From Candidatus Doudnabacteria bacterium (GTDB lineage Bacteria; Patescibacteriota; Doudnabacteria; UBA920): 64,000 bases of DNA. Under the pieces are notes generated by a model. It did not search any database, was not told where the DNA came from, and saw nothing but the letters and a program-made list of their open reading frames with translations. Location of the stretch: the NCBI GenBank assembly GCA_963837465.1, contig CAWINB010000004.1:330853-394852 (forward strand), written 5' to 3'. The translations under genes were made by a program, and so were the position numbers. Position 1 is the stretch's first letter, and the number at the start of each line of letters is the position of its first letter. Below, in pieces: positions 19,366 to 55,627 of the stretch.

Positions 19366-21255
19366 ATGAATAACAAATCACTGATTTTTGAATTGCCCAA
19401 AATTGTGGAAGAGGGCAAAAAAGAAGTTGAAAAAATATTGGAACGGCTTTCCAGTCAAAGTCGGTTAGGTTTGCAGACTAATGAGCTGGTTCTACCGGCA
19501 AAAGATAGTGGCGGGCTTTTTCGCGGGCATATAGCAGAACAGAAAAACAATGAGTGGCTGAATCGCTTAATATATGGCGATAATTTGTTAGCTATGCAGG
19601 CTTTGCTTTCCGGCGATGAGCAGAGCGGTCTTGCCAGTATGCGTGGGAAAATAGATTTAATTTACATTGATCCACCGTTTGATAGCAAAGCTGACTACCG
19701 CACAAAGGTTACCTTGCCTGGCGTGGATTTGGAGCAAAAGCCAACAGTTATAGAACAATTTGCATACGCCGATACTTGGAAAGATGGCACCGTAAGCTAT
19801 TTGAAAATGCTTTATCCTCGTCTTGCTTTAATGCGCGAGTTGCTCTCCGAACAAGGCAGTATTTATGTGCATATTGATTGGCACGTCGGGCATTATGTAA
19901 AAATTTTACTTGATGATATTTTTGGAAAAAATAATTTTAGGAACGAAATAATTTGGTGGTATCTTTGGGGAGGAAGAGGTAAGACACAATGGAATAGCAA
20001 ACATGATAATATTTTATTTTATTCCAAGGATAATAATTGGATTTTTAACTTTAAGGATGTATTAGATGATCACAATTTAATGACAGAAGGGTCAAAAAAT
20101 AGGTTGAATTACAAAGGTGCGATGGTAACTACCAAAAGCGAATCCTCAGAAATACCCGAAGATAAAGTGCTGCCTTCTGATACTTGGTATATAGCAACCA
20201 TTAATGCAATGGCAAAAGAAAAATTAAATTATGGTACTCAAAAACCAGAATCTTTGGTAGAAAAAATAATCAAAGCATCTTCAAATGAAAATTCCATTGT
20301 AGCAGATTTTTTTGCGGGGAGCGGGACAACTGGAGCGGTGGCGGAAAAACTTGGACGGAGGTGGATTATGTCGGATATTGGCAAGCCAGCGGCTTTGATA
20401 ATGCGCAAACGGTTAATTGACCAAAACGCCAAACCGTTTTTGTATCAATCCATCGGCGACTACCAAAAAGAAGCGTTTACCTCCTCAAAGTTATACCGCC
20501 GGGTTGGCGACCTGGCCCAGGTGGTATTGCAACTTTACGGCGCAATCCCTTTTACAGAAGACCAAAGCCAAATGCGAAATTTGGGGTATATAAAAGACAG
20601 TAAAACTTTGGTAATGGTGGATTCGCCGAATAAAATGACCGGCCTTGCCACGCTTAAAAAAGCGCAGGAGCTTAAAGCCAGTTTTATGGGCGGATTTAAC
20701 AAAGTGGTGGTCTTGGGCTGGAATTTTACTTTTGATATTACCGAAGCTATTCATTCGCTTAACGATAAAAGCGTGGAAGTTTTAGTTATACCCCCGGATC
20801 TGTTAGATAAGTTAAAGAGCAAAGCTGATTACAAAGACTTGATTGACAGCGGTAAAATTCGTTTTTCCTCTTTGCAATATCTGACTTTAAAACCAATTAC
20901 GGTAAAAATATTGCCGGATGATAAAGAACAGTTGCATGTTGAATTAGATAATTATGTTTTACTTTCCCCAGACAACATACCTTTGGACGAAAAGGACAAG
21001 GAAAAATTAAAAGAAGTCATTGCTAAAGATCCATTGTCTTTGGTTGAATATTGGAGCATTGATCCCGATTATGACGGAGTTACTTTTCGCAGCCTATGGC
21101 AGGATTATCGGGAAAATGAAGACAATGACGCAGAGCCTTACCATGTTGTAAAATCGGTAGATTTGACTGTCCCCAAAAAGAAAGAAAAAAGAATTGTATG
21201 CGTAAAGGTCGTGGATGTTTTTGGTTTTGAAAGTATTGCGACCGAGGAAGTTTAA
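19366..21255 (+). CDS. mod: Type III restriction-modification methyltransferase (Mod, N6-adenine)
   Basis: 629 aa with the IDPPFDS (DPPF/Y) motif and AdoMet-binding [11 protein letters not shown]. It is followed 4 nt later by the res helicase. Confidence 0.8.
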
Positions 21256-21258
21256 CAT

Positions 21259-24171: not shown

Positions 24172-24192
24172 CATTATGGATTGTAAAAATTT

Positions 24193-24369
24193 ATGTCACA
24201 TGAAGATTTAGACATTGACGAGTTCAAAAGAATTTTTGGAAAGTATTATGACAAGCCGCTTTCCGACCAAGATGCATATGAAGGCGCTTATGATTTGCTT
24301 AACGCTTTTAAATGGTTAGTAGATCAGGACGAAAGCAACAATCTAAAAATTCAGCCAAAAACTAGATGA
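24193..24369 (+). CDS. small hypothetical protein (58 aa)
   Basis: ORF found by eye, below the track threshold. Its stop overlaps the next start in an ATGA arrangement. Confidence 0.35.
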   Translation: MSHEDLDIDEFKRIFGKYYDKPLSDQDAYEGAYDLLNAFKWLVDQDESNNLKIQPKTR

Positions 24370-24533
24370 TTTCTCAAGAAGCGTTAGAAAAATATAAGGC
24401 TATTTACAAGGAAGAGTATGGTGCGGATATTTCAGACGCAGAAGCCTTGGATTTGGCCGTCAATCTTTTAACAATGATGAACGCAGTATATCGGCCGATA
24501 AAAAAAGAATGGGCTGAAGATGCTGACCTTTGA
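24366..24533 (+). CDS. small hypothetical protein (55 aa), paralog of 24708..24893
   Basis: MISQEALEKYKAIYKEEYGADISDAEALDLAVNLL aligns with MISKEHLEKYKQIYKNRFGKELSNQEALEQATKLL of the ORF 340 nt downstream. Confidence 0.4.
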   Translation: MISQEALEKYKAIYKEEYGADISDAEALDLAVNLLTMMNAVYRPIKKEWAEDADL

Positions 24534-24560
24534 ATTTAACAATCAAATTTAGATAAATTT

Positions 24561-24698
24561 ATGAAGGTATTTATTAGGTTAGTGTTAGGCTTAGTGGCAT
24601 TATTGTTTATAACTTTTATGTCGGCTGCTTTTGGGATAGGCGGGTTTTTGTTCACGCTCGGTTTGTTTGCGGTTATAGTTTATGCTTTTGCTAGGTAG
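24561..24698 (+). CDS. small hydrophobic peptide (45 aa, two TM helices)
   Basis: MKVFIRLVLGLVALLFITFMSAAFGIGGFLFTLGLFAVIVYAFAR. It lies between the two paralogs. Confidence 0.3.
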   Translation: MKVFIRLVLGLVALLFITFMSAAFGIGGFLFTLGLFAVIVYAFAR

Positions 24699-24707
24699 CT
24701 ATTTTTT

Positions 24708-24893
24708 ATGATTTCAAAAGAGCATCTTGAAAAATATAAACAGATTTATAAAAACCGTTTTGGGAAAGAATTATCTAACCAAGAGGCTCTTGAGCAGGCC
24801 ACTAAGTTGCTTAGGTTAATAGAAATTATTTACCATCCCATGACCCAGGAAGAGCTGGATATGGTTAATAGGCGGAGACAGGAATTGGGTTAA
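24708..24893 (+). CDS. small hypothetical protein (61 aa), paralog of 24366..24533
   Basis: See paralog alignment. Confidence 0.4.
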   Translation: MISKEHLEKYKQIYKNRFGKELSNQEALEQATKLLRLIEIIYHPMTQEELDMVNRRRQELG

Positions 24894-24899
24894 AAAGCT

Positions 24900-26114
24900 T
24901 TGACTAAAGTTTGCCATCACAAAGCTTGGAATTTTGCTATAATTAAGAGGCACAAAGCCTCTTTTAATTTAACCCCCTCTATGAACTATATCGAAGATTG
25001 GAAATTATATCTTTGGAAAAAACTGTTGCTGAAATCTGATTATTTCAGCCAGCAAAACCTTAACCTATTTCAGGCTATCCGTAATTTTGTATTTGGCCAG
25101 GACTGGGGCGGAACTGTAGGCAACGATTTGATAGCACAAGCATTAATTGAAATGAGCAATTTTCAGCCGCCCGCTGTTGAGATTACCAACGTTAGGATGT
25201 TAAAAGATTACCGAGATTACCATTACAAGAGATTGTCTGAAGAAGAAGCAAAAAAGGCGCTCGCGGCTGCCACAAGCTCAAGCTATACAAATCCAAATTC
25301 CAAAACCGTCCACGTTGTTTTGCAGCCCAACCACGGATTGCCTAAAGAAGTAGACCAGAAGCTGGAGAAACTTGAGAAGGACAAAAATCTGGCTGACTTA
25401 GATTTGGCGGACTTAAAAACGATGGCCTATAATGCCAAGCTCCCTCAATACTTATGGAATTACGTTAGCTTTGATGCGAAATTCCACAAAGAGCCTTTAG
25501 AAAAAAAGCTAAACGATTACATCGACTCTTTTATCCAAGGGGATTTGGTAGCGCCAAGGGGTTTTAGACTTTACGGCCCAAGACAGCAGATGGAGAGAAT
25601 GTGGCAAACTATACAGGTATTAGCGACTGGTCAGGGCTCGAAAAACCTCAAAGTTACTTTGCGGGACATTGTGCCGCCGGGACGTAGCCCAGTAAATGAG
25701 CATAATCTCTATAAATTTTATGAAATGATACTGGCTTTGGAGCGCAGTGGCGACATCACAGTTACTGATATAGTCGGCTCCGAGGCAGTTATTTCCATAG
25801 CCCCAAGGCATTTAAAAAATCTCGACCCGGACTTAAGGATACCCCCTGCTTTTGCTAAATTTGAAGGCAAGTTTGTCGAACATGAACTTCATTGGTATTG
25901 CCCTATATGCGGCAACAAGATTAAAGTCTTTGAGGACAAAGACACGCTGGCGGAAACCCTTACTATCCGCACCAAACGCTGTAAAAACGGCCACGAAAAC
26001 AAAATAATGATTATCGATGATAAGCTGTATTTGGAAAATACGCCCATTGCCGTTTCAGAAGCAATGGCACACTTTAAGCGCAGGAATAAAGTCCAAAAAC
26101 CAGATGGCGTTTGA
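24900..26114 (+). CDS. hypothetical protein with C-terminal zinc-ribbon (CPICGN...C.NGH)
   Basis: 404 aa with no recognisable catalytic motif. The true start is possibly the Met at about 24981. Confidence 0.4.
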   Translation: MTKVCHHKAWNFAIIKRHKASFNLTPSMNYIEDWKLYLWKKLLLKSDYFSQQNLNLFQAIRNFVFGQDWGGTVGNDLIAQALIEMSNFQPPAVEITNVRMLKDYRDYHYKRLSEEEAKKALAAATSSSYTNPNSKTVHVVLQPNHGLPKEVDQKLEKLEKDKNLADLDLADLKTMAYNAKLPQYLWNYVSFDAKFHKEPLEKKLNDYIDSFIQGDLVAPRGFRLYGPRQQMERMWQTIQVLATGQGSKNLKVTLRDIVPPGRSPVNEHNLYKFYEMILALERSGDITVTDIVGSEAVISIAPRHLKNLDPDLRIPPAFAKFEGKFVEHELHWYCPICGNKIKVFEDKDTLAETLTIRTKRCKNGHENKIMIIDDKLYLENTPIAVSEAMAHFKRRNKVQKPDGV

Positions 26115-26497: not shown

Positions 26498-27703
26498 TTG
26501 CCTCTAAATAATCAAAATCCCTCTATGATGATTGACAGTATACGTCTAAGAATTTCTATATTTAGTAGCGTGAAAAATAACTTCTTTTTTAGAGAAAAAA
26601 GAGGGAGCCTTGATTATGATAATAGTAATAGACAGAGGGTTAAACAATTTATACGAACCAATTTTAAGTGGAGCGAACAACAACGGTCTCAGGGTAAATA
26701 TATCCCAAAATATTGGACAGAAACCAACAGCTTTGAGGGCGGTAAACAGTATCTTATTTTTGAATTTTCAGTTCCAAAGTTCTTGCAGGGACATAATTTA
26801 GTCGAAATTGCAGAAACCATGCTGCCTGTCTTGGTGGATCGTCTCGAGGACTTCTGTAAAATAATTCAACTATCAGTTGCGGAGGTAGATATTTTGGGTG
26901 CGCAAGTCACGATGGTCGCATATTGTCATAATGTTCCGATAGCCCATCTGGCTCCTTCGCAAGAAGTTATGAAATTGTTATCTGGATATACCTATCGTTT
27001 TCGTTCTAAATTTCGGCCCGAGCAAAATGAATTGGGACAGATTACTCATTTACAACTCGGTAATAATACTTCCCATGTTACTGCTTATGATAAGTTGCCG
27101 GAGATTATAGTGCATGCCCGAACTACTGAGGAATTGGAAATTGCCAAAATAATTAAAAATAAACAGTTGCCAAATCCTTACGGAAAAATTATTCAAGACA
27201 CCATTAGGTTTGAGCTCACTTTACATAATACTGTGTCGGTAAGGCAAGCAATGAAAAAATTTTATGGTGACAAGCCTTTTTACACACTCAAGGATGTGTT
27301 CAAAGCCGATATTGCGGCGGCATTATTAAAGTTGGAAATGGAGGAAATTTATAATCACCCCCTTAAAAATATAGCTGCAAATTCTAATTATGACTTCCGA
27401 AAACTAAATGATGAGGTCGGTAAATTTATTCGAGACCGCCATCAGGACGGCAAACTGATTGGCTTGCTGGAACAGGCCACCCTTGTTCTACACGCCGGGG
27501 GCTGGGCGGCGGTCAGAACTTATTTAGCGAAAGGTTGTTGCCGCCGGACTTTGCAATACCGGATAGCTGAACTACGCGAAATAGAAAAAATTGGAATTAA
27601 TTTGGGAACGCCAAATGAAAAAATTATGGAATATATTTTAAACCAATTTGGCATTGGAAAAACTAATTTACTTCCTAAAGGCCAACAATTATTGTTTAGC
27701 TAA
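26498..27703 (+). CDS. hypothetical protein, possible replication-initiation protein of the element
   Basis: 401 aa. Preceded by imperfect direct repeats (tgccaggcggcgagaggtaagg at 26184 and tgccaggaggcggaggagtaagcg at 26262). The functional call is weak. Confidence 0.3.
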   Translation: MPLNNQNPSMMIDSIRLRISIFSSVKNNFFFREKRGSLDYDNSNRQRVKQFIRTNFKWSEQQRSQGKYIPKYWTETNSFEGGKQYLIFEFSVPKFLQGHNLVEIAETMLPVLVDRLEDFCKIIQLSVAEVDILGAQVTMVAYCHNVPIAHLAPSQEVMKLLSGYTYRFRSKFRPEQNELGQITHLQLGNNTSHVTAYDKLPEIIVHARTTEELEIAKIIKNKQLPNPYGKIIQDTIRFELTLHNTVSVRQAMKKFYGDKPFYTLKDVFKADIAAALLKLEMEEIYNHPLKNIAANSNYDFRKLNDEVGKFIRDRHQDGKLIGLLEQATLVLHAGGWAAVRTYLAKGCCRRTLQYRIAELREIEKIGINLGTPNEKIMEYILNQFGIGKTNLLPKGQQLLFS

Positions 27704-27916: not shown

Positions 27917-28885
27917 ATGAGCCAGTTTAACCAAAACCCAGATCCTAATTTTATACAGCAGCCATCTGCTCCGGTTTTAGGTTTGCCGGTCGTAAATACC
28001 CCACAGCTTTTGACCTTTGAACAGTTGATCCCGTTGTTTGGCGATTACGTCACTTACGATTTGAATCATAGTCCTAAGACATCCAAAAAGTATGTCGAGG
28101 GGTTAAGGCATATTTTGAAAGACCTACCCTTTATAGTTTACCCCCAAGACTTAACGTTGCCGCATATTACGGAACTGAAGAAAAAAGTGCAGTTGCGTGG
28201 CGCAAAAGAGTCCCGAGTTAATAGTCTACTATTCTCATTGCGAAAATTTTTAACCTATTGTAACGAAGTCTATAAACTGGTTACAATAAATCCAAAGGAA
28301 ATTAAAGTTATGCGATTACCAAAAAGGGAAGTGGTGTTTTTGGCTCCTGCCGAAATTGAGCAATTTTTAAGCGCAATGGATACAACAACTTTGCCGGGAT
28401 TACGAATACGGACGCTTGTAGAGGTGCTACTTTCCACTGCTATGCGAATTTCCGAAGCCCTGTCGGTCAGCCGTGGGGACATTGACTGGGAGGGCAAGGA
28501 AATTGTCATTATAGGGAAAGGCAATAAGCAGCGGACGGTATTTTTAAGCGATAGGGCAATCGGTTGGCTTCAAACCTATTTACTCCGGCGTAAGGATAAT
28601 GACCCTGCTTTGTTCGTAACCTTTGGCGAACCCAAACGCTTGTCGCCTTATGACTTGTCTAAGCAGTTTAAGCACTATGCTGAAAAAGCAGGATTAAAGA
28701 AAAAAGTAACACCCCATATTTTACGCCATACGGCCGCGACAACCATGTCCCATAACGGCGCGGACATTCGTAACATTCAGCTAATTTTAGGCCATAGCGA
28801 CATTAAAACAACCGCCAAATATTACTTAGGCGTGGACAAAGAGGCTTTAAAGGAAGCCCATAAAAAGTTTCTAAAATACGATTAG
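27917..28885 (+). CDS. tyrosine recombinase/integrase (class B)
   Basis: 322 aa with LLSTAMRISEAL...IIGKGNKQRTVFL...HILRHTAATTM...GHSDIKTTAKYY. A distinct clade from the 18138 integrase. Confidence 0.85.
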   Translation: MSQFNQNPDPNFIQQPSAPVLGLPVVNTPQLLTFEQLIPLFGDYVTYDLNHSPKTSKKYVEGLRHILKDLPFIVYPQDLTLPHITELKKKVQLRGAKESRVNSLLFSLRKFLTYCNEVYKLVTINPKEIKVMRLPKREVVFLAPAEIEQFLSAMDTTTLPGLRIRTLVEVLLSTAMRISEALSVSRGDIDWEGKEIVIIGKGNKQRTVFLSDRAIGWLQTYLLRRKDNDPALFVTFGEPKRLSPYDLSKQFKHYAEKAGLKKKVTPHILRHTAATTMSHNGADIRNIQLILGHSDIKTTAKYYLGVDKEALKEAHKKFLKYD

Positions 28886-29128: not shown

Positions 29129-29806
29129 ATGACGCCAATGGAAACCCCGTTGACCGTATCCACTAACAATCCCCGAGAAGGCAAACAGGGCCGGAAGTTG
29201 TATTACCGGCTCAAAACCTCAATTAAGAAATCCGGATTATTAATTGTAGCGCTTCAACCCGCGCTTGAGTTCCCCGGCACAGCGATGGAAGACGACATCG
29301 CGGCTATCTTGGTAAAGTATTCCAAGATGGCTCGTGGCATCGTTACTCCCGTCCGCGCCGAGGACACCGGCCTCATGCCCCAGGGCTATTCGGTATACCT
29401 CACGCCGCAGGGCGTTCGCAAGGATCGTCTGGAAGGCGACGTCGAGCTGGCTAATGTCGACTACATCTGCCCGTTGCGGGATGATGATGGCGACTATATC
29501 GGCGGCGAGGTAATGCTCCAGCGGTCGGTCGAACTCAAGGCCATCGGTAGCCTCGGCTACGCTTTCGCGCTTCTCAAGGCGCAGGAGCAAGGGAAGGAAA
29601 TCTTTCCTGTCGAGTCGCGCGGCAAGCATTATTTCATTATGCCGCTCACCGAGCTGCTCGGTGACGACCGTGGCCGCCGCGTGGCTTGCTTCGGCTGGCA
29701 CGGCAAGTCGCTGCGTTGGGTGCTCTTCTTCCGTTGGGTCGGCGGCGTCTTCGCTCGCCGCGGTCGGTTTGTTGTTCCCCGCGAGAAGAAGCCCTCGGTC
29801 GCTTAG
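29129..29806 (+). CDS. DGR variable (target) protein, VR at C-terminus
   Basis: 225 aa. GC content is much higher than the surroundings. The C-terminal region ...ACFGWHGKSLRWVLFFRWVGGVFARRGRFVVPR is encoded by the VR. Confidence 0.75.
   Translation: MTPMETPLTVSTNNPREGKQGRKLYYRLKTSIKKSGLLIVALQPALEFPGTAMEDDIAAILVKYSKMARGIVTPVRAEDTGLMPQGYSVYLTPQGVRKDRLEGDVELANVDYICPLRDDDGDYIGGEVMLQRSVELKAIGSLGYAFALLKAQEQGKEIFPVESRGKHYFIMPLTELLGDDRGRRVACFGWHGKSLRWVLFFRWVGGVFARRGRFVVPREKKPSVA
29654..29782 (+). repeat. DGR variable repeat (VR)
   Basis: 129 nt aligned to the TR at 30148-30276. About 25 mismatches, every one at a position where the TR has adenine. A GC-rich IMH-like sequence and the hairpin ccccgcat...atgcgggg follow at 29783-29890. 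Confidence 0.85.
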
Positions 29807-30147
29807 TCCCTCGGCTCTGCCGCTGGGTTCTGGACTCTTGGCGCTTCGCATTGCCCCGCATTTTGACTTCGGTCAGGATGCGGGGTGTTTTTTTGTCCAA
29901 AATTTTGAAAGTTTGGTATAATTTAAGTAGATGGGATTTATGCCTGCGGTTAAGGCTTCAGGTGACCACATCTCGCATTGTTAAAAAACCAGAGTATCGG
30001 CGGCTACGGTTTCCGGTAGAGTGTTTTTTAACAAATCTTAAAAAGAAGATACTCGGTGCAAAGTATTGGCGGGCTTTAAGGCCCCAAATAAAATACAACC
30101 CCAAGAGTATTCAAGGGGTGGTGGCTTGGAATATACTTTGCATAATC

Positions 30148-30276
30148 CTGCTCGATGACAACCGTAACCGCAACGTGGCTTACTTCAACTGGAACGACAA
30201 GTCGCAGCGTTGGGTGCTCAACTTCAATTGGGTCGACAACAACTTCAATCGCAACGATCGGTTTGTTGTTCCCCGC
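30148..30276 (+). repeat. DGR template repeat (TR)
   Basis: Adenine-rich (AAC codons: AYFNWNDKSQRWVLNFNWVDNNFNRNDRFVVPR). Lies between the target gene and avd/RT. Confidence 0.85.
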
Positions 30277-30644
30277 TATTGTCTTCTTACTCCTCCCACA
30301 ACGGGAGGAGTTTCTTTTAATAACTGCCGCTGCCAGCCGCCAAACATTTTACCCGCGTCAACCAGAGGTGTTGAAATATCACTAAATTGTTTATTGTCTA
30401 AGGCTTTTAACTCCCAAGCCAATTGTAGGAAGTATTTAAGGGTATCAAGTTTAATGCTTGCCTTTTGAATTAAGATTGACTTGCTATCCCTTGAGGTAAA
30501 GCCCGCTGTCAGCGTTAGTTCAATAACATCGGTGAACAGGACATTGATTTTTTCAGCCAAGGAGTATTTTACCAGCTTGGGCAGGTGTGGCAGGTAGTTG
30601 TGCCAGAGTTTGTAAGCATCGGTAATTTTTTGTAATACCGGCAA
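30276..30644 (-). CDS. avd: DGR accessory variability determinant (Avd)-like four-helix-bundle protein
   Basis: 122 aa, helical, 23S-rRNA-IVS-protein-like sequence (LAEKINVLFTDVIELTLTAGF...LKYFLQLAWEL). Located between TR and RT as in canonical DGRs. Confidence 0.6.
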   Translation of the reverse strand: MPVLQKITDAYKLWHNYLPHLPKLVKYSLAEKINVLFTDVIELTLTAGFTSRDSKSILIQKASIKLDTLKYFLQLAWELKALDNKQFSDISTPLVDAGKMFGGWQRQLLKETPPVVGGVRRQ

Positions 30645-30673
30645 GTTGATAAAATTTCCGTTGGGGGGGGGGG

Positions 30674-31717
30674 TTGTTAAAAGTCATTTTTATAAGTTTA
30701 ATTATGAAAACGCAATTAAAAATAAGTTACGAGGAAATCATTTCACTCGAAAATTTGTTTGCCGCCTGGCAGGAGTTTTTGCCGGGCAAGAGAAAAAAGA
30801 AAGACGTGCAGGAATTTGGCCTTAGGCTTGCTGATAACATTTTACAGCTTCAGGAGGAACTTGCCAATTTTAGCTATATCCACGGCCCATACAAGGCCTT
30901 TAACATTTCTGACCCCAAGCCGAGGAATATCCATAAGGCAAGCGTTCGGGACAGAGTTTTACATCACGCCATTTACCGCAAACTATATCCGTTTTTCGAC
31001 AAAACTTTTATCGGCAGTTCGTATTCCTGCCGTTTGGACAAAGGAGTTCACAAGGCTTTGAATAAGTTTAGGGCATTGGCGTTTAAAGCAAGTAAAAATC
31101 ATACGCAAACAGCTTGGGTGCTCAAGTGTGATATTAAAAAGTTTTTCGCCAGCATTGACCATGCAAAACTGCTGAAAATTTTATCAGCTTACGTTCCCGA
31201 TAAAAATATTCTTTGGGTTTTAGAGCGAATTATTTATAGCTTTGATTATAAGGTAGCAGGCCGCGGCCTCCCGCTTGGCAACCTGACCTCCCAATTATTT
31301 TGCAACGTATATATGAACGAATTTGACCAATTCATAAAACACAAACTCAAGGCCAAATATTATATCCGTTATGCTGATGATTTTGTTTTTTTATCGGGTA
31401 GCAAGGACGAGCTAATATCCTTAGTTCCTAAAGTAGCCGAGTTTTTAGGAGAGGACTTAAAACTGTCTTTGCATCCGGATAAAGTTTTTATAAAGACCTT
31501 GGCCTCGGGCGTGGACTTCCTGGGCTGGGTGCATTTCCCTCATTACCGGGTTCTAAGAAAAAATACCGGCAGAAGAATGTTCAAACGAATTTACGGCCAT
31601 CCAACAAATGAAACATTCCAGTCATATTTAGGGTTAATGAGCCACGGAAATACTTACGGGCTTAAACAAAAATTGTTGAATTGGTATGGGTTACTTAAAA
31701 CAGCACAGCAGGAATAG
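30674..31717 (+). CDS. DGR reverse transcriptase
   Basis: RT motifs include YIRYADDFVFL (YADD). Motif 4 is LGNLTSQLFCNVYMN, the IGxxxSQ-like feature characteristic of DGR RTs. Also SDPKPRNIHKASVRDRVLHHA. The probable start is the Met at 30704. Confidence 0.85.
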   Translation: MLKVIFISLIMKTQLKISYEEIISLENLFAAWQEFLPGKRKKKDVQEFGLRLADNILQLQEELANFSYIHGPYKAFNISDPKPRNIHKASVRDRVLHHAIYRKLYPFFDKTFIGSSYSCRLDKGVHKALNKFRALAFKASKNHTQTAWVLKCDIKKFFASIDHAKLLKILSAYVPDKNILWVLERIIYSFDYKVAGRGLPLGNLTSQLFCNVYMNEFDQFIKHKLKAKYYIRYADDFVFLSGSKDELISLVPKVAEFLGEDLKLSLHPDKVFIKTLASGVDFLGWVHFPHYRVLRKNTGRRMFKRIYGHPTNETFQSYLGLMSHGNTYGLKQKLLNWYGLLKTAQQE

Positions 31718-35929: not shown

Positions 35930-35934
35930 GGCCT

Positions 35935-43614: not shown

Positions 43615-43623
43615 AAAATCTTT

Positions 43624-43806
43624 GTGTATATGGCACTCAAAGAAAAGCAGGCTTACTATAAATGCAAAAAGTGCGGCGATGAGATTTATTGGAATACCCA
43701 CAAAAGGTATACCAAGTGCAGTTGCGGAGCTTTGGCGGTAGACGGGTGCGAAGAATATGTAAGGGTAATAGGCAACGCTAAGGACTGGGGGGAGATAAAA
43801 AAATAA
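43624..43806 (+). CDS. small zinc-ribbon protein (CKKCGDEIYW...CSCGA)
   Basis: 60 aa with four Cys in a CxxC...CxC arrangement. Confidence 0.4.
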   Translation: MYMALKEKQAYYKCKKCGDEIYWNTHKRYTKCSCGALAVDGCEEYVRVIGNAKDWGEIKK

Positions 43807-43817
43807 TTCTAGAAATT

Positions 43818-44237: not shown

Positions 44238-44241
44238 ATTT

Positions 44242-44856
44242 ATGCCTGAAAGACCAGCCCCCGAAGAGTTTAATAGGCCAATAGAAAGTCGGCAAGACCA
44301 AACTACGCCGATAGAGTTTCCGCACGCCGAAGCTGGCTTGGAGGCTTACCTTAAAGAGTATCCAAACGAAGCGTCCAGAGCGGAAAAGTTACGAGCCGTG
44401 TTCCAAGAGTTTTTACAGCGGGAAATAAAAAACATAAAAATATTCAAATCAGAACAGCTTGGTGCCGAATTGCCGTATACTTCTATTAAGATTGGGGAAT
44501 TAGCAAGAAGCATTTACAAAAAATACGCTGAGGCAGACAGTTTACCTGTTGAAGCCCCCGATGTCGCACCAGTGGCTCAAGAATTTGTATTTAATTCAGC
44601 CTTGTCCACGGATGAGGGTAATGAGTTTAACTTTGTAGAGGAGGCTATGCACGAAGCCGTTAAACATTTGCCCGCCGCTCTTAAAGCACTTAGAGAGGGC
44701 AAAGCTCCCGAAGAACGGGAAGTTTTTACTCTTGGTATGCCAACTAATGTATTAGGCAGGGTGTCGCCCGAACTGGCGGACAGAATAAACAAAGAACCTT
44801 TTGAGGAATTGGGCAAAGTCTTTGCTGAATTGGTAAAAGCAGAGAATGCGAGCTAA
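44242..44856 (+). CDS. hypothetical protein
   Basis: 204 aa with the start 5 nt after the previous stop. Confidence 0.35.
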   Translation: MPERPAPEEFNRPIESRQDQTTPIEFPHAEAGLEAYLKEYPNEASRAEKLRAVFQEFLQREIKNIKIFKSEQLGAELPYTSIKIGELARSIYKKYAEADSLPVEAPDVAPVAQEFVFNSALSTDEGNEFNFVEEAMHEAVKHLPAALKALREGKAPEEREVFTLGMPTNVLGRVSPELADRINKEPFEELGKVFAELVKAENAS

Positions 44857-45817
44857 AGCAATAAAATTTCAAGGCGTATCTTTGAGTAGCAATATAGCAA
44901 TTAGAACGGCAGAAAATTTAGTTGAAAAAGGCTTGGTTACTCAAGACTTTGCCGTAGCCGAAAAAGACCATTTGCCGTATTTGCAAATTGAAGCCGAGGT
45001 TCCCGTTTCCCTTAGCCCGTCTAAAATAAAAGCCCTGCAAGTGCCAGTTGGTTTTTTTGCCGATGCTTTAAAAGAAAGAAAGTTGCCAGAAGTCAAAAGG
45101 ATAGAAGCTGGTAAGCCGCAGTTTGGAAAAGATGTAAATGAGGTGTTAGCCCAAAGGGGTATACACGAGCAAATGGCTGATGACCAAAAGAAGACTAAGC
45201 GTGGGGTCATACTTGATATACTCAAAAAGGTTGGCAACACTTTTAAGCCAAAACCTGAAACAAAAATTACCACCCTTTATGGTTTAAATGATTTAACCAC
45301 CAAGTCGCCGTCTATGGTTAAAGCGGCAAAAGTCCGCAAGCAGGAATTTGGCGGCACGCTTGGCCAAAACCTTTTGGAAAGGGCTAAGCCCAACGAAAGA
45401 GTGTTTACTGCCGAAATGATGCACCTTAGTCCTCGGTTTAGAAAAACTCAGCTAAGAAGAATGCGGGTGCTTGCTATAACTTTAGAAGATTTGGAACAGG
45501 GTAAAAATTTATTAGAGGTAGCACCAGAGCATATACCAACCCCCGAAGAAGTAAATTTGGTTTTTAGGGAACTAATAGGCAAGGAATACAGGGAAGTGCG
45601 TAAACGAGAAGACGAGCAAGGTCTTTACTTGTTAGAGGTGGAAGTTGCTGGAGAAGCGGAAGGTGAAATTACCGAATACGCTTATATGCGAAAAGGCCGT
45701 TATGCGGAAGGTCAAATTTCGGCAACCGAAATTCACGTTACTTATTACAAGGACGGCAAACCCGTAAGCGGAACATCGGCGGCAAGGTATGTTGATGGGG
45801 AATGGAGAATTCTTTAG
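44846..45817 (+). CDS. hypothetical protein
   Basis: 323 aa. Overlaps the previous gene by 11 nt. Confidence 0.35.
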   Translation: MRAKAIKFQGVSLSSNIAIRTAENLVEKGLVTQDFAVAEKDHLPYLQIEAEVPVSLSPSKIKALQVPVGFFADALKERKLPEVKRIEAGKPQFGKDVNEVLAQRGIHEQMADDQKKTKRGVILDILKKVGNTFKPKPETKITTLYGLNDLTTKSPSMVKAAKVRKQEFGGTLGQNLLERAKPNERVFTAEMMHLSPRFRKTQLRRMRVLAITLEDLEQGKNLLEVAPEHIPTPEEVNLVFRELIGKEYREVRKREDEQGLYLLEVEVAGEAEGEITEYAYMRKGRYAEGQISATEIHVTYYKDGKPVSGTSAARYVDGEWRIL

Positions 45818-45857
45818 TAATAGCATAAAAATGCCAATTTAGTTTTCCTACAAAAAG

Positions 45858-46056
45858 CTATTAAAACTCAATCGGCTAATTTAGGCTCTTAAACAATAGT
45901 GGGTAGCACAGAGGGTAAACTTTGGGAGGGGATAACTGTGTTGCTACAACTTTTTGTAATCGCTAACATCTGTGTAAGACTTTAAAAATTAAATATCTTT
46001 GCTGACCGAAGCGTAGTGCAGGAATTATTTTTTTACACCTCGGATTAAACACCTCC
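45858..46056 (+). repeat. right arm type 2 plus partial core (cacctcc at 46050-46056)
   Basis: About 190 bp homologous to 47521-47720 (ctattaaaact..aatcggct..aaacaatagtggg..gggtaaactttgg.aggggataact.tgttgcta...cgctaacatc...ttacacctcggattaaacacctcc). Confidence 0.7.
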
Positions 46057-46124: not shown

Positions 46125-47486
46125 ATGCACGAACCAACTGAACCTAATAATCAACCCTGTCCAGGTTGTGGCTATCCAGCTCAAGCTGGCCACGCTCCTA
46201 ATTGCCCTACTGTCAGCAAAGGCGAAAAGGAAAAAAACCTTGAAGGAGTAGAAGCAAGGAAGTATACGGCCGAGGATATACAAAATTTTCAGGGTGAATT
46301 ATCACAATTTGAAAAAATGCGTAAGGCTGATAATGCCAACTACGTCTTTGATTTTACCGAGTATTACCAATTTTTAACCCAGCACAAAAAATCTCAAGAA
46401 CGACCTTTTACACAAAGAGATGTTTCGACACCTGGCTATCAAGATTTGGAAGTTGGCATATTCAAAGGCTGGAAACAAAATTTGTTAGCCAAAAAAGACA
46501 AACTCATCCAGTCACGACCAAAATTAGCACCGATTATCGGAATGCTAGAGAGCGAGCCTACGCCAAAAACCTTAGATGAACTTCGGGATTTGTTTAGAAA
46601 ACATCCCGACTTAAATGAATTTGGCGCAGTCCAATACCAAGACGGCGTGGGAGAACAGGGAGAAAAGAAAAGCGGATTTTTGCATATCAATATGTCCCGC
46701 TATAACGGCTATGAATACGAACTACCCAAGACGGATACCAGAGTTTACTTAAACCCGCCACCCGAAGCTATACCGCAAATATCTATGGAGCTTTGTAATA
46801 TAGCACAGGCTAAAAGATTTCCGTTATATTTTAAAACCATAGATTATTCTTTTCAAAAACCCAATCCCGACAACACCAACAGGCTGGATAAGTTTATTGT
46901 TTATACAGACAAGGCGCACGTGACCGCTCTCTCCCAAGAATTAAAAACTTTGCAAAGCAAACATCCCGAATGGTTTAACGGCAGAGAATTGCCAACTATG
47001 GTTGCCAAAATGGGCGAGGGCGTGGGAGTAGCGGAAGACCCTAACGAACAACAAATGCAAAAGTTTGGCGAGCGTGGCAAGTCATTTAACGGTATGAGGG
47101 CTTTATTTTTAAAGGATGTTTGGACGGGTGTGACAAAAGACATTATCTTAGCGCAACGGACTTGGCGGCCAAGAGGCGGTAGGACTATGGAAGAAATTTT
47201 TAATGATAATCTAAAAGCTGGGCTAACTCGTAGGCAGTTACAGCCTAATGTGATAGCCGATGTTATCGGCAAGGCTTGGGCGGCACAATTAGATAGTTCA
47301 AGAATGGGAAGTCTTCCCGACAGCAGAATAGCAGATGAAGTTGATAATGCCGTGGCAAGAACTATGGCTGATGTAATTCCTAACATTACCCCTGATTCCT
47401 TGCAACCAGCCGTGCAAAACCAAATCAACAAAAAAGCAAAGGATTATTTTATTAACCCTAATAATTTAGCTTTTAATCAAATTTAA
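46125..47486 (+). CDS. hypothetical protein with N-terminal zinc-ribbon (CPGCGYP...CP)
   Basis: 453 aa. The only gene between the two type-2 right arms. Confidence 0.4.
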   Translation: MHEPTEPNNQPCPGCGYPAQAGHAPNCPTVSKGEKEKNLEGVEARKYTAEDIQNFQGELSQFEKMRKADNANYVFDFTEYYQFLTQHKKSQERPFTQRDVSTPGYQDLEVGIFKGWKQNLLAKKDKLIQSRPKLAPIIGMLESEPTPKTLDELRDLFRKHPDLNEFGAVQYQDGVGEQGEKKSGFLHINMSRYNGYEYELPKTDTRVYLNPPPEAIPQISMELCNIAQAKRFPLYFKTIDYSFQKPNPDNTNRLDKFIVYTDKAHVTALSQELKTLQSKHPEWFNGRELPTMVAKMGEGVGVAEDPNEQQMQKFGERGKSFNGMRALFLKDVWTGVTKDIILAQRTWRPRGGRTMEEIFNDNLKAGLTRRQLQPNVIADVIGKAWAAQLDSSRMGSLPDSRIADEVDNAVARTMADVIPNITPDSLQPAVQNQINKKAKDYFINPNNLAFNQI

Positions 47487-47520
47487 GGGATTATGGCCAG
47501 TTTAGTTTTTGTATAAGAAT

Positions 47521-47738
47521 CTATTAAAACTAAATCGGCTTTAAACAATAGTGGGCGGTAGTGGGGGTAAACTTTGGAGGGGATAACTTTGTTGCTAAAA
47601 AATTTTACTGCCGCTAACATCCGAGTAGCAATTTAAAAATTAAATATCATCGCTGTAAGCGAGCTTGAAAATAAATAGTGGGAGCGAGTGGGGGTGAACA
47701 ACTTTACACCTCGGATTAAACACCTCCTTTCTAAGGAA
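47521..47738 (+). repeat. right arm type 2 (second copy) plus att core copy 3 (47721-47738)
   Basis: See 45858-46056. The core is the full 18-mer cacctcctttctaaggaa. Confidence 0.7.
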
Positions 47739-47996: not shown

Positions 47997-48968
47997 ATGT
48001 TCTATGCAAAAACGTCACTTGAATCAACCGCTAAAGTAGGAACTTTAGCGCCAATCTCCAATGATTTGACAATGAGCCAGCTCATTCCAATGTTTTTAAA
48101 GTACGGTCAGTTTGAATTAATGTTCTCACAGAACACGCTCACCAAATACGACGAGTGTTTAAAATGGGTTGTTAGGGACATCGGCGATTTGAAGGTCACG
48201 GAGTTAAGCCTGTTCCATTTTACCGAGTTAAAACAGATAATAACTAACCGTGGTTGCGGCACCAGCCGCGTTGCTTCCATGGTGTTCTCCATGAAGAGTT
48301 TCCTTAAGTATTGCAAGGACTATCTAGAGCTGCCGGTCATGGATTACAAAAAGATAAGGTCGCCGCGGTTTAAGCGCCGTGAAGTGATTTATTTAACTAA
48401 CGAAGAGATTGAGCAGTTTGTCAGCGCCATTAAAATAGAGAATGGCCCTCGTGCCATAAATTCGGTACGTATGGATGGCCTAAGGTTTCGGGTACTGGTG
48501 GAAGTCTTGCTCGGCACCGGCATGCGCATTTCTGAAGCCTTGTCGCTTAACAGGGATATGGTTGATTTTGAAAAGGCCGAAGCCAAGATTATAGGCAAAG
48601 GCAGCAAAGAACGTACAGTATTTTTCAGCGAGCGGTCGCTTGATTGGGTCAAGCGTTATCTATCCCTGCGTACAGACAATGAACCCGCTTTGTTTCTCAC
48701 CCAGCAGAATACGCGCCTGTCCAAGATAGATGTGCCCGGCTTCTTTAAACGGTACAGCAAGAAGGCCGGTATAACGAAGAAACTGACACCGCACGTGCTC
48801 AGGCATACCTGTGCTACGAACCTCTTGTTTAACGGCTGTCCCATAAACAATGTTCAAGTAATTTTAGGGCATGACCGGCTGGAAACCACCTGTCGCTATT
48901 ATCTCGGTGTTGACAAAACAAAAGCCAAAGAGGCACATGGCAACTTTTTAAATTATCAATTGTCGTAA
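47997..48968 (+). CDS. tyrosine recombinase/integrase (class A)
   Basis: 323 aa with LLGTGMRISEAL...IIGKGSKERTVFF...HVLRHTCATNLL...GHDRLETTCRYY. Confidence 0.85.
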   Translation: MFYAKTSLESTAKVGTLAPISNDLTMSQLIPMFLKYGQFELMFSQNTLTKYDECLKWVVRDIGDLKVTELSLFHFTELKQIITNRGCGTSRVASMVFSMKSFLKYCKDYLELPVMDYKKIRSPRFKRREVIYLTNEEIEQFVSAIKIENGPRAINSVRMDGLRFRVLVEVLLGTGMRISEALSLNRDMVDFEKAEAKIIGKGSKERTVFFSERSLDWVKRYLSLRTDNEPALFLTQQNTRLSKIDVPGFFKRYSKKAGITKKLTPHVLRHTCATNLLFNGCPINNVQVILGHDRLETTCRYYLGVDKTKAKEAHGNFLNYQLS

Positions 48969-49357
48969 TTTAGATACTTTGCGTGCGCGGCTTTCAGCGC
49001 GCGTTTATCGGTGCCCAGATAATACTGGGCCGTGGTGCGAATGTCCGAGTGCCCCAAGAGTTCCTGGATATAGCGGATGTCGCAACCGTTTTCCAGCATG
49101 ATCGTCGCGGCCGTGTGCCGCAGCGTATGCGGCGTGACTTTTTTCTTGATCCCGGACTTGGCCGCATACCTGCGGAATTCCTTGCCCAGGTCATAGCGGG
49201 CAAGCCGCTTGGCTTTGCCGAACGTCACGAAAAGGGCCAGGTTGTCATCGGTTCGGCTTTGCAGATACTTATTTATCCATTCCAAAGCGCGATCGCTTAT
49301 GAAAATTACCCGTTCCTTGTTGCCTTTGCCGATTATGGTAGCTTCTTTGGTTTGCAA
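48956..49357 (-). pseudogene. C-terminal fragment of a class-B tyrosine recombinase (N-terminal half deleted)
   Basis: 133 aa beginning IIGKGNKERVIFISDRALEWI and ending ...HAKYLNYDN. It aligns to residues about 190-322 of the 27917 integrase and converges tail-to-tail with the 47997 integrase. Confidence 0.7.
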
Positions 49358-49379
49358 GTTTATGCTGTCGCGGTTAAGG

Positions 49380-50210
49380 CTTAAAATTTCCGAAATACGG
49401 CCGCCGGTGTCGGAAACTTATGGTGTTGAGATTTCGCAGTCAGCGATTTCCGGCATCACGGATAAAGTTTTTCCACAAATGAAGGAATGGCAATCCAAAC
49501 CGCTGTCGTCATTATATCCGTTGCTTTATTTGGACGGTCTGTGGTTTAAAGTTAGGGATAGCGGCAAAATTGTAACCAAGTGTGCCTATATTGCTTTGGG
49601 TATTTGGATTTGCGAGAGCGAGGGCGCAAAATTTTGGTTACAGGTTTTGAGCGAGATAAAAAATCGGGGCGTGGAGTCTGTGCTTATTGCTTGCGTGGAC
49701 GGCTTGAAAAGTTTTCCCGAAGCTATTAAAACTGTGTTCCCGGAAGCCGAGGTGCAAGCCTGCATAGTTCACCAAATTCGTCACACCATAAAGTTCGTGT
49801 CCCACAAAGACCGAAAAACTTTATGCGAAGATTTAAAGAGCGTTTATGCTGCACCATCTGAGGTGGTTGGGTTACAGGCTTTGGAGGAGGTTAAGCAAAA
49901 GTGGCCCCAATACAGTTTCTGCTTAAACAAGTGGGAACAGAGATGGACTGACCTTGCGCCATTCTTTGGCTATCCCGAGCAGATTCGGCGGATAATGTAT
50001 ACCACTAACGCCATAGAAAACCTAAACCGCCAGTTTCGCAAAGTCACCAAGACCACGCAGGTCTTTCCGCACGATGACTCTCTGCTTAAATTGCTCTGGC
50101 TGGCGCAGGACGAGTTGGCAAGGAACTGGGTTATGCCCATGCATAACTGGGGTCAAATTATCACCCAGTTTGCTATCCTGTTTCCAGATAAAATAAATAC
50201 AGAAAATTAA
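49380..50210 (+). pseudogene. IS256-family (mutator-type) transposase, N-terminally truncated
   Basis: LYLDGLWFKV...IACVDGLKSFPEAIKTVFPEAEVQACIVHQIRH matches the IS256 DDE region. About 100 aa of the N-terminus are missing. The annotated ORF start at 49209 runs antisense through the integrase fragment. Confidence 0.65.
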
Positions 50211-51003: not shown

Positions 51004-51779
51004 TGCTGACTTTAGAACAAATTGAACAGCAGTATCCGGAAAACTTACGAGGCTTTAAGCGTTCGCTGCTTCGGGAGTATTTGCAGTATAAGATTTTAGA
51101 AATTATTTTTGCCTCTGAGTATGCCACCAAGTTAGTTTTTATCGGCGGCACGGCTTTAAGGATAGTTCACGACAACAGTCGTTTTTCGGAAGATGTGGAC
51201 TTTGATAATTTCGGATTAACGGCAGCCGAGTTTGAGGAGACATCGCAAAAGGTTAAGGCAGGACTTACAGCGGAAGGGTTTAATGTTGAAATAGGCTTTA
51301 GGGGTAAGGAATCCTACCGCTGTGATGTAAAGTTTCCCGGCTTACTCTTTGGGAGCGGACTTTCGCAGCACGAAGGCGAAAAGATACTGGTGCAAATAGA
51401 TAGTTTATCCCAAGGCTTTAGCTATAAGCCTGAACGTAAGATATTAAACAAGTTTGATGTTTTTACGGAAATTTTTACCCCTTCGCCCGAGTTATTACTA
51501 TCTCAAAAGATTAACGCTATTTTTACACGGAAGCGGGCAAAGGGCAGGGACTTTTATGATGTTGTGTTTTTACTATCCTTTACAAAGCCAAACTATCAGT
51601 TTTTGACGCAAAAGTGGGGAATTGAGAATGGTGAGGGATTAAGAGCAAAGCTAATGGAAATGGCTTCCAAGCTCGATTTTAAGGATTTGGCACGGGATGT
51701 AGAGCCGTTTCTATTCAATCCGAGTGACAGTAAGAAGGTTGAGTTATTCGCGGATTTTATTAAGCAAGCTAAGTTGTAA
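51003..51779 (+). CDS. abiEii: AbiEii/AbiGii-family nucleotidyltransferase toxin
   Basis: FIGGTALRIVHDNSRFSEDVDFD, the GG..L....RfS.DvD NTase motif of DUF1814/AbiEii. Length is 258 aa. Confidence 0.7.
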   Translation: MLTLEQIEQQYPENLRGFKRSLLREYLQYKILEIIFASEYATKLVFIGGTALRIVHDNSRFSEDVDFDNFGLTAAEFEETSQKVKAGLTAEGFNVEIGFRGKESYRCDVKFPGLLFGSGLSQHEGEKILVQIDSLSQGFSYKPERKILNKFDVFTEIFTPSPELLLSQKINAIFTRKRAKGRDFYDVVFLLSFTKPNYQFLTQKWGIENGEGLRAKLMEMASKLDFKDLARDVEPFLFNPSDSKKVELFADFIKQAKL

Positions 51780-51782
51780 GTT

Positions 51783-51865
51783 AGCAATTAATTGATCTTT
51801 TAAATTTTTAATACAGTAGTAGTTTGTCAGGCAATTTCCGTTTACAACGGCTCAGAAACACCTCC
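51783..51865 (+). repeat. right arm type 1 (second copy) plus partial core cacctcc (51859-51865)
   Basis: Identical over about 78 bp to 34585-34662. After cacctcc the sequence diverges (ctccggctacag). Confidence 0.75.
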
Positions 51866-52891: not shown

Positions 52892-52965
52892 TGGACTGGG
52901 AATCCTGTACAGGTATATTAGATAGAAAATCGGGGGTATAATACTGTCAGGAAGGAATAACAAAA

Positions 52966-55152: not shown

Positions 55153-55173
55153 ACGGGATAACCGATATACGGA

Positions 55174-55627
55174 TATGAAAATCCCAGCGCACATTCGCAT
55201 TTTAGCGACAATACAACCTGGCTCGATTTATTATTTTGAAGAAGAGCAACTCTCTTCACCAGAGCCGCACTACTTCATAGTTTTGAATAAAGACCCGCTC
55301 ACAGAGGAATTTCTTATTCTTGTTTGCGCTTCTTCCCAAGTTGAGAAGCGTCGGCAGATAGCAATAAAGCTGGGCTTTCCAAAAGAAACTTTGGTATTTG
55401 TATCACCATCCGAATGCTCGCTTTTCACAAAGGATACCGTTATAGATTGCAACAGGGTTTTTGAAAAAACTTCGCAGTCTCTCATTGAAAAACTTGAGCA
55501 AGAGAATCTCAAAGTATGCGCAGAAGTAATTGCCACAGAGATTATCGCCAAACTGATACAGGGAGTGTTGGCAAGCTCGCAAGTATCCGAAAAGATACAG
55601 CAATTACTCTTAAATCATACCAACTAA
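55174..55627 (+). CDS. hypothetical protein, candidate toxin partner of the Panacea protein
   Basis: Probable start MKIPAHIR, inside the 54986..55627 track ORF. Immediately downstream of and overlapping the Panacea gene. Confidence 0.35.

Follow-up and report, generated by a model that had tools for sequence, protein, structure and literature searches.

Genomic islands and prophages that integrate at the ends of tRNA and tmRNA genes carry a tyrosine integrase adjoining attL, the left attachment (att) site, and a direct repeat that corresponds to the 3′ end of the stable RNA gene. The element restores the end of the gene, and repeated use of the site leads to tandem arrays. In streptococci, integrative and conjugative elements (ICEs) and integrative and mobilisable elements (IMEs) accrete on one att site together with cis-mobilisable elements (CIMEs). 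In P4-like satellites, phage-inducible chromosomal islands and hotspot 5 of the SXT ICE, immunity genes sit in variable slots between conserved mobility genes, with sister elements differing in slot cargo. Defence and toxin–antitoxin (TA) genes in the variable slots of integrative elements, as well as tandem accretion with integrase-less derivatives, are already known, and the gene families concerned here are the commonest ones. We analysed a 64-kb stretch of DNA (hereafter, the window) from a Candidatus Doudnabacteria bacterium (contig CAWINB010000004.1), a member of the candidate phyla radiation (CPR, Patescibacteria), which shares these features. We put at roughly three in four the probability that the locus is a ca. 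42-kb tandem array (17861-59947) of five integrative units (E1 to E5) accreted at the end of the 16S rRNA gene, with defence or addiction modules making up about a quarter of the genes. It departs from the known cases in its target, the 3′ end of the 16S gene, and in a structured, element-borne trailer. Literature searches for integration at the 16S 3′ end returned nothing relevant; a bacterial attachment site (attB) at this position may so far be undescribed.

The full-length 16S rRNA gene lies at 16287..17870 on the plus strand (Rfam SSU_rRNA_bacteria, 1274.6 bits, model positions 1-1533), its 3′ terminus reads ...GGATCACCTCCTTTCTAAGGAAC, and its final nucleotides serve as the integration target. 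The anti-Shine-Dalgarno end of the gene, CACCTCC[TTTCT], forms the crossover core, with copies at 17861, 34663, 46050, 47721, 51859 and 59936. CACCTCC is the minimal element common to all six junctions, and its usual extension is CACCTCCTTTCT(AAGGAA). The 12-mer CACCTCCTTTCT occurred four times, always on the plus strand (at the 16S end and again at 34663, 47721 and 59936), against an expected 0.02, and the pseudo-end RAACACCTCC occurred five times (34660, 46047, 47718, 51856 and 59933) against an expected 0.15. A sequence-only reading of this stretch had proposed islands at an rRNA site, with their systems packed between att copies. The repetition of the 16S 3′ end as the att core bore out the site, and the copies are well above chance, the crossover core being more narrowly defined than the repeats beside the integrases, but the array runs ca. 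4.3 kb past 55627, where that reading had ended it, probably to 59947.

All junctions lie on the plus strand. At the first (J0, 17861..17878), the att core CACCTCCTTTCTAAGGAA joins the true 16S 3′ end to the left arm of E1. Right arm R1 of E1 leads into J1 with a full core at 34663 (34581..34680), and right arm R2 of E2 into J2 (45833..46056), where the homology to its copy ends right after CACCTCC at 46056. Right arm R2′ of E3 is followed by J3 with a full core at 47721 (47496..47738), and right arm R1′ of E4 by J4 (51778..51865). The probable right boundary of the array is J5 (59936..59947), at which the pseudo-16S end GAACACCTCCTTTCT precedes chromosomal genes for LytR and an ATP-binding cassette (ABC) transporter. 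Two right-arm pairs, 34594-34669 with 51790-51865 (76 nt) and 46032-46056 with 47703-47727, are 100% identical, and in both the identity ends exactly after CACCTCC. Past this breakpoint, one copy continues into TTTCTAAGGAA and an integrase arm, and the other into xTxCGGCTACA and a different, integrase-less arm. Such an exact stop is a signature of site-specific recombination with a crossover in or beside the anti-Shine-Dalgarno heptamer. The right arms comprise only two sequence types, R1 and R2, which are combined with arms A and B in all four ways, and no further 16S fragments were found inside the array. As in elements that target stable RNA genes, the 16S 3′ end is repeated directly at the far boundary and an integrase stands beside attL; the same was found in two loci of other genomes described below (L006 and L008). 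Unlike in tRNA- and tmRNA-end islands, the target here is the 16S 3′ end, and neither a tRNA nor a 23S rRNA gene was found in the 64-kb window. The predicted empty attB junction is GGATCACCTCCTTTCT+TTCGCACATTTTT (GGATCACCTCCTTTCT+TTCGCAC), and the attP of each unit would consist of right arm, core and left arm.

The units differ in size and content. E1 (17861-34662, 16.8 kb) contains the integrase gene int1, a LOOT RNA, a Type III restriction–modification (RM) system, small paralogous open reading frames (ORFs) with a 404-aa unknown protein, a rolling-circle replication initiator (Rep), int2, a diversity-generating retroelement (DGR), three other genes and a BrnTA pair. E2 (34663-46049, 11.4 kb) comprises int3, a membrane protein, a Rep-like gene, ParB, int4, a Type II RM system and an unknown four-ORF operon. 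E4 (47721-51858, 4.1 kb) holds int5, a convergent integrase fragment, a truncated IS256 transposase and an AbiE system. Two units have no integrase: E3 (46050-47720, 1.7 kb) consists of a single HopA1-family gene, and E5 (51859-59947, 8.1 kb) carries a broken extracytoplasmic function (ECF) sigma factor, IS3 remnants, a PanA pair, genes of the PNPOx, DoxX and short-chain dehydrogenase/reductase (SDR) families and two membrane proteins. E3 and E5 are flanked by the same right-arm types as the other units and look like elements mobilisable in cis. This resembles streptococcal ICE/IME accretion with CIMEs, in that several units share one att site, the integrase-less units keep both att-flanking arms and the arm types are shuffled. 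In contrast to the streptococcal elements, those of this array reside in CPR bacteria and carry rolling-circle Rep or ParB modules together with a second integrase, and neither conjugation nor relaxase genes were detected.

E1, E2 and E4 each start with a conserved left arm of ca. 270 nt (arm A of E1 at 17879..18137; homologous arms at 34681-34942 and 47739-47996; all plus strand) followed by a subfamily-A tyrosine integrase: int1 (18138..19121; Pfam Phage_integrase, 9.6e-40), int3 (34943..35929) and int5 (47997..48968). The left arms form two hairpins (loops TTTTCGAA and TTTCGA), the pairing of which is kept by compensatory changes (alignments and RNAalifold, 11 sequences), and a terminator-like hairpin abuts the integrase ATG, including that of int1. 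The left arm could be an element-borne 16S trailer with terminator, an addition that has no counterpart in tRNA- and tmRNA-end islands, or could hold the arm sites of the integrase. The two large units, E1 and E2, add a replication or partition module and a second integrase of subfamily B (int2, 27917..28885; int4, 39633..40682) and look like integrated plasmid-like replicons. The module of E1 is a rolling-circle replication initiator (26498..27703; Phage_CRI/phrog_702), and that of E2 comprises a replication-initiator-like gene (37188-38048; phrog_270, 1.8e-06), a 72-aa ORF and a ParB-family gene (38583-39614; ParB_N 1.8e-17, TIGR00180), all on the plus strand like the integrases. The five integrases are intact and homologous, with conserved catalytic R..K..HxxR..H..Y columns. 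Between 18138 and 64000, nearly all genes are on the plus strand and the GC skew is positive throughout; the array is probably co-oriented with the 16S gene and with replication.

An integron-like platform, in which one integrase inserts cassettes at a fixed 16S-adjacent site, would account for the integrase-less E3 and E5 being bounded by recombination sites and for E3 being a single gene with its own promoter-like sequence. Sedentary chromosomal integrons, with cassettes rich in TA and defence genes, also form an array at a single recombination site, and interspersed TA pairs may stabilise the array there and here alike. However, five intact integrases are present, in the same orientation as the cargo and each with a conserved arm of its own, the units are replicon-like, with several genes that include Rep and ParB, and the right arms are of two types only, unlike the cassette-specific imperfect palindromes of attC sites. 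The integron hallmark of a single intI, an attI and attC-bounded cassettes is absent from this locus, and we regard gene capture of this kind as very improbable. A prophage was considered and rejected, as PHROGs gave replication proteins only and no virion or packaging genes, the best IMG/VR integrase was 39% identical, and core copies were present in 0 of 80 viral loci.

The reading of the locus as accreted integrative units is also supported by relatives in other genomes. An alignment of the five integrases led to 79 genomic loci (numbered from L001), and the nearest integrases and 16S genes belonged to metagenome-assembled genomes (MAGs) of CPR/Patescibacteria (Saccharibacteria, Doudnabacteria, Moraniibacteriota and Parcubacteria), with the 16S gene of the window sharing 81-89% identity with those of the Doudnabacteria and Saccharibacteria loci. 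In 14 of the 15 closest CPR loci, the distance from the core to the integrase downstream of it was no more than ca. 320 nt. It followed a complete 16S gene in L004, L005, L006, L007, L009, L011, L015 and L020, stood at a contig end starting inside the 16S tail in L001, L002, L008 and L024, and followed a pseudo-end in L003 and L010; pseudo-16S ends were also present inside contigs of other MAGs. The left arm of ca. 270 nt was conserved in L001, L003, L004, L005, L006, L015, L020 and L024. Simple islands, 4.9 kb long in L006 and 5.9 kb in L008, are enclosed by 16S-end repeats. On one Doudnabacteria contig (JARLHZ010000016.1), two att-plus-integrase units lie 33.6 kb apart: in L015, a helicase and a Type IIG RM enzyme come after a 16S-adjacent integrase, and in L003 a second pseudo-16S end is followed by an integrase. 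Therefore, such arrays are not unique to the genome studied here. For each left arm in the window, an arm from another genome is a closer match than either of the other two, and int5 matches the 16S-adjacent integrase of a Doudnabacteria MAG (L005, 10001-11811) with 97% protein identity and 89% DNA identity over 1.7 kb; these affinities argue for separate acquisitions of the units. A convergent second integrase follows both int5 and the L005 integrase, the copy in the window (48956-49357, minus strand) being cut to its C-terminal half beside a 5′-truncated IS256 transposase (plus strand, within 47997..50210).

The pairing of a subfamily-A with a subfamily-B integrase recurs in L001, L002, L003, L007 and L024 from Saccharibacteria and Doudnabacteria. 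L001 and L002 have in common the subfamily-A integrase block (92%) and the block of Rep and subfamily-B integrase, whereas the stretch between them is unrelated, which marks a variable slot. The slot holds S-adenosylmethionine (SAM)-dependent methyltransferases and a haloacid dehalogenase (HAD) hydrolase in L001, an amino-acid ABC transporter and a methyltransferase in L002, and the Type III RM system in the window. This arrangement parallels P4-like satellites, phage-inducible islands and the SXT hotspot, except that here the slot is not reserved for defence genes. An SNF2/DrmD-like helicase is accompanied by a Type IIG RM enzyme in L015 and L004 (2e-245, 1e-204 and 3e-154). When 146 ORFs lying downstream of such integrases were annotated with Pfam and PADLOC, they included 13 more integrases, Eco57I/MmeI methylases, Fic and ParB, together with ArsR/ArsP, cation-efflux and ZIP transporters, HAD hydrolases and PilM. 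Given this mixed cargo, the element family is a general carrier of accessory genes in which defence is frequent but not defining. The only window proteins with relatives in the related loci were the DGR reverse transcriptase (RT) and a 61-aa protein. Some related 16S genes contain insertions of their own, namely a group I intron in L005 (8071-8566), while the 16S gene of L015 (7367-9726) extends over ca. 2.36 kb.

The recognisable cargo of the array consists mostly of common first-line immunity or addiction modules (Type III RM, Type II RM, AbiE, BrnTA, and PanA with a MazF-fold toxin), plus the DGR; all genes described in this paragraph are on the plus strand. In the Type III RM system, Mod (19366-21255; PADLOC MTase_III 1.9e-83, profile positions 72-610 of 616; Pfam N6_N4_Mtase) is followed after 4 nt by the 970-aa Res (21259-24171; part of the PADLOC REase_III profile, 5.4e-30; Pfam ResIII 1.4e-13 and Helicase_C), giving the expected Mod and adjacent superfamily 2 helicase-nuclease. 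The Type II system comprises a C5 cytosine methyltransferase (40824-41861; DNA_methylase 4.1e-65) and, as an adjacent gene overlapping it by 8 nt, an endonuclease of the BsuBI/PstI family (41854-42873; Pfam BsuBI_PstI_RE and its N-terminal domain), which matched the full PADLOC REase_II profile at 8.9e-78, in agreement with the earlier call of a putative restriction enzyme. In the classical PstI and BsuBI systems, the methylases are of the N6-adenine type. Because the endonuclease here is paired with a C5-methyltransferase instead, its specificity may differ. AbiEi (50383-51003; PADLOC 1e-62) and AbiEii (51003-51779; 6e-98) are both full length, and the antitoxin adjoins the nucleotidyltransferase toxin as in AbiE systems (type IV TA/abortive infection). 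BrnT (33726-34040; BrnT_toxin 7.6e-20, 71.5 bits) and the downstream CopG/BrnA antitoxin (34006-34272; CopG_antitoxin 4.1e-28, 98.4 bits) both exceed the Pfam gathering scores and constitute a type II TA pair.

The fifth module had been described as a Panacea-domain pair at 54526-55627. Its PanA antitoxin is clear (54526-55152; SocA_Panacea, 2.4e-18, 67.5 bits), and the partner starts at 55175 and not at 54986. This 150-aa partner (55175-55627), 23 nt downstream of PanA on the same plus strand, belongs to a protein family with at least 125 members in CPR, and the pair is kept with identical 23-nt spacing in Jorgensenbacteria contigs. The AlphaFold (AF2) model of the partner (predicted local distance difference test score, pLDDT, 94.5) matched MazF/PemK toxins in Foldseek with probability 1.0 and a template modelling (TM) score of 0.70-0.76 on the target. 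PanA and its MazF-fold partner are thus a reasonably supported, predicted TA pair. The DGR (29129..31717) is complete, with a target gene at 29129-29806, a variable repeat (VR) at the 3′ end of this gene (29654-29782), a 129-nt template repeat (TR; 30148-30276), Avd (30276-30644, minus strand; bAvd 1.9e-11, 44.8 bits) and the RT (30674-31717, plus strand; Pfam RVT_1 and PADLOC RT). All 26 of the 26 TR/VR mismatches fall at TR adenines. An ORF at 29686-30468 was rejected as a gene, being the out-of-frame TR region. Thus, the two RM systems, AbiEi/AbiEii, BrnT/BrnA and the DGR were confirmed where the sequence-only reading had placed them, and every family that it had named in the window was recognised by PADLOC or Pfam. 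This applies equally to the further TA genes it had noted outside the array, all on the plus strand: MNT (8485-8853; Polbeta 1.7e-14) with HepT (8843-9265; HepT-like 1.2e-18), and a PemK/MazF-like toxin gene (97..507; PemK_toxin 6.2e-10).

The same reading had held the cargo to be almost entirely defence or TA, which the gene census contradicts. Among the 41 genes in the interval 19366-55627, six were PADLOC-recognised defence genes (22.8% of the span), four were TA genes (4.6%) and three belonged to the DGR (5.8%), compared with 11 for mobility or replication (26.4%), 13 with no assigned family or function (17.7%) and four with other functions (7.5%). Defence and TA together thus make up 10 of 41 genes, 27% of the span and 32% of the coding bases (13 of 41 genes and 39% of the coding bases with the DGR), and about three-quarters of the genes are neither. 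These other genes include the integrases and one integrase fragment, the rolling-circle Rep and the second Rep-like gene, ParB, IS256 and IS3 remnants, a SAM-dependent methyltransferase, the HopA1-like gene, the broken ECF sigma factor and the 13 unknowns. When the mobility backbone was excluded, defence and TA accounted for ca. 47% of the cargo bases (57% with the DGR). Defence and TA form the largest class of annotatable cargo, with a majority among annotatable cargo genes, and at least one defence or addiction module is present in four of the five units. The window contains three PADLOC systems, all within the array; PADLOC found no system in the ca. 22 kb outside it, only domain-level matches of housekeeping proteins.

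The proteins of the window were found, residue for residue, on one 868,218-bp contig, in line with the small genome that had been supposed (ca. 0.87 Mb), and identical genes are also present in ERR10755945. In CPR genomes, defence systems are markedly fewer than the 3.2 per genome that bacteria have on average (PMC12259885), so three systems in one 42-kb locus, which makes up 4.8% of the genome, are a large share for such a genome. Overall, the sequence-only reading of a very high defence load concentrated at one locus is partly supported. With three PADLOC systems and two TA pairs packed into 36 kb of a 0.87-Mb genome, in a lineage that on average has few such systems, the locus could also be taken for a true host defence island, where selection clustered immunity genes at one hotspot and the mobile genes are incidental. 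Operationally, a defence island has been defined as at least five defence genes of at least three families with gaps of no more than 10 genes (PMC12259885). The array has six PADLOC-recognised genes, but only two PADLOC families (RM and AbiE), to which a third is added only by counting the MazF-fold TA or BrnTA, and it is not a defence island by this definition because ca. 21 genes separate the Type III Res from the C5-methyltransferase of the second RM system. Compared with catalogued defence islands, in which 61% of genes are for defence, the density is lower (15-24% of genes) and only common first-line families are present. Moreover, each system is enclosed in an element that has boundaries, an integrase and arms of its own, and the closest sister elements carry non-defence cargo. 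A host-selected island is unlikely in view of this structure.

Several observations weigh against the reading of the locus as a defence-bearing array of integrative units. J5 is the weakest junction, sharing 12 nt of the core and showing weak or short right-arm resemblance. An exact search of metagenome contigs for the empty site, that is, the 16S end joined to the sequence after J5, gave no match, and no excised circle was found. The mobility of the elements is thus argued from repeat structure and cross-genome comparison. A self-BLAST search for the att site of the subfamily-B integrases yielded nothing convincing. Decay is visible in insertion sequence (IS) insertions and fragments, the truncated integrase, the frameshifted sigma factor and a split gene; therefore, some units may be immobile and parts of the array may be fixed. 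On the side of the cargo, the contrast between the inside and the outside of the array in this window was not significant because of the few genes involved (Fisher p = 0.09 for PADLOC genes, 0.52 with TA included), and the 13 genes without known function could raise the defence share, or not. Orthologues of the LytR gene in the right flank, sought for the ancestral arrangement, were represented by relatives with 33-34% identity only.

The non-significant Fisher tests would fit a locus that holds a random sample of CPR accessory genes with no real enrichment, RM, AbiE and TA being the commonest mobile genes. According to the literature, RM, AbiE and MazEF lead in prevalence among groundwater bacteria generally, and both the mixed cargo of the 146 ORFs from related islands and the TA pairs outside the array point the same way. 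However, all three PADLOC systems of the 64 kb are inside the array and none outside, and the systems fill 20-23% of the span, far beyond a plausible genome-wide fraction at 0.87 Mb. We therefore doubt that chance sampling of this kind explains the locus.

How the accreted units came together may be envisaged as follows. A subfamily-A integrase would recombine a site borne by the element with the 16S end, and the element would bring a replacement 16S tail, trailer and terminator, so that the rRNA gene would stay intact. Later arrivals would reuse the regenerated site, making the array grow, and units without an integrase may be moved in trans, with accessory genes occupying the variable slots. 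The 16S end would be well suited as a site, being essential, nearly invariant, present in every bacterium and probably single-copy in these hosts. The RM, Abi and TA modules would probably have a dual role, restricting phage and foreign DNA for the 0.87-Mb host and stabilising the elements through post-segregational killing. A narrower view sees the RM and TA modules as chiefly selfish addiction devices that keep the elements in place by post-segregational killing, and not as a host arsenal. Type II RM, BrnTA, PanA-type TA and AbiE (type IV TA) are kinds generally known as addiction systems; the modules ride on units with Rep, ParB and integrase genes, exactly one or two of them in four of the five units, and the pair of PanA and its MazF-fold partner also occurs in housekeeping contexts of other CPR genomes. 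On the other hand, Type III RM and AbiE are documented as phage defence, the large helicase and Type IIG systems of related islands are unlikely to be pure addiction modules, and the two roles are compatible. Addiction as the main role is possible, albeit somewhat less than probable.

The remaining cargo includes several genes to which no family was assigned. A LOOT RNA (19177..19305, plus strand; Rfam RF03000, 60.8 bits) lies between int1 and mod, 60 nt upstream of the latter. A second LOOT RNA of the window (689-802) precedes a bPH_2 membrane-protein gene outside the array, and two more occur in related loci (L005, 16987-17107 on the minus strand; L006, 13497-13614), one of them within the 4.9-kb 16S-site island. 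The small ORFs and the 404-aa protein (24193..26114, plus strand) had no match in PADLOC, Pfam, NCBIfam or PHROGs, nor did the 404-aa protein in PDB. Between Res and the 404-aa protein (24193-24893) there are three paralogues of 55-61 aa and a transmembrane ORF of 45 aa, and one of the paralogues has relatives in L032 and L024, in the latter between its two integrases. A SAM-dependent methyltransferase (32550..33200, plus strand; Pfam Methyltransf_11/25; weak NCBIfam matches to small-molecule methyltransferases) is of a non-DNA type by domain and was not counted as defence. The four-ORF operon of E2 (43048..45817, plus strand) encodes a 188-aa HExxH protein, a 139-aa Cys-rich protein and ORFs of 204 and 323 aa, without family matches. 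The last two (44242-45817) overlap by 11 nt and jointly match one 525-aa homologue with 92% identity, and the ORFs at 44242 and 44846 are probably a single gene split by a frameshift. The 323-aa protein had only seven detectable homologues. Where scanned, PADLOC, Pfam, NCBIfam and PHROGs returned no match for the genes at 24900, 31787, 33223, 35935, 43048, 43818 and 44242/44846 or for the small ORFs, and a PDB sequence search with those at 24900, 43048, 44846 and 31787 gave nothing or one weak chance match. Two ORFs were considered as integrases and rejected: 44846 encodes a protein without a family, and 53171 is an IS3 remnant.

The HopA1-family protein, the only gene of E3 (46125..47486, plus strand; Pfam HopA1, 4.6e-07), is mobile-element cargo and not a recognised defence gene. 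Its AF2 model (pLDDT 80.9) has a core resembling phospho-Ser/Thr lyases, with modest Foldseek scores to LxmY, lyase domains of class III lanthipeptide synthetases, HopA1 and OspF. Homologues were seen beside large serine recombinases in other CPR contigs, one of them fused to a Zeta-toxin kinase domain. E5 starts with the ECF sigma-70 factor (52034-52891), which is frameshifted or interrupted, its two ORFs jointly covering the profile, followed by IS3 orfA and a truncated orfB (52966-54139); beyond the PanA pair, its Pfam-annotated non-defence cargo consists of PNPOx-like, DoxX and SDR genes and two membrane proteins (56513..59612), all on the plus strand. In the left flank of the array, housekeeping genes encode SodA, RNase Y, YmdB, NusA and ClpP. 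This flank also contains an IS630-type element with 30-nt inverted ends (2792-3932) and, ca. 0.8 kb upstream of the 16S gene on the opposite strand, an rve-domain transposase gene (14183-15469).

CPR bacteria have tiny genomes with few defence systems, and the place and movement of their immunity genes can explain how they cope with phages. Most of the recognisable immunity of this 64-kb window is on elements stacked at one site, which makes the 16S end a practical spot to seek accessory, and possibly new, CPR defence genes; 13 genes without known function occupy the same slots as the defence modules. The evidence is, in our judgement, evenly balanced on the broader proposal that a family of tyrosine-integrase elements, widespread in CPR/Patescibacteria, use the anti-Shine-Dalgarno 3′ end of the 16S gene as their att site, rebuild the rRNA tail with their own structured trailer and terminator, stack to ca. 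5% of a 0.87-Mb genome and are the main vehicle for the gain and loss of immunity and other accessory genes in streamlined symbionts. If this proposal is true, the anti-Shine-Dalgarno sequence would be an attachment site universal across hosts, foreign DNA would be placed directly behind the strongest promoter of the cell, and such integration would help to account for assemblies of these genomes that break off at the 16S gene and leave an integrase at the contig edge.

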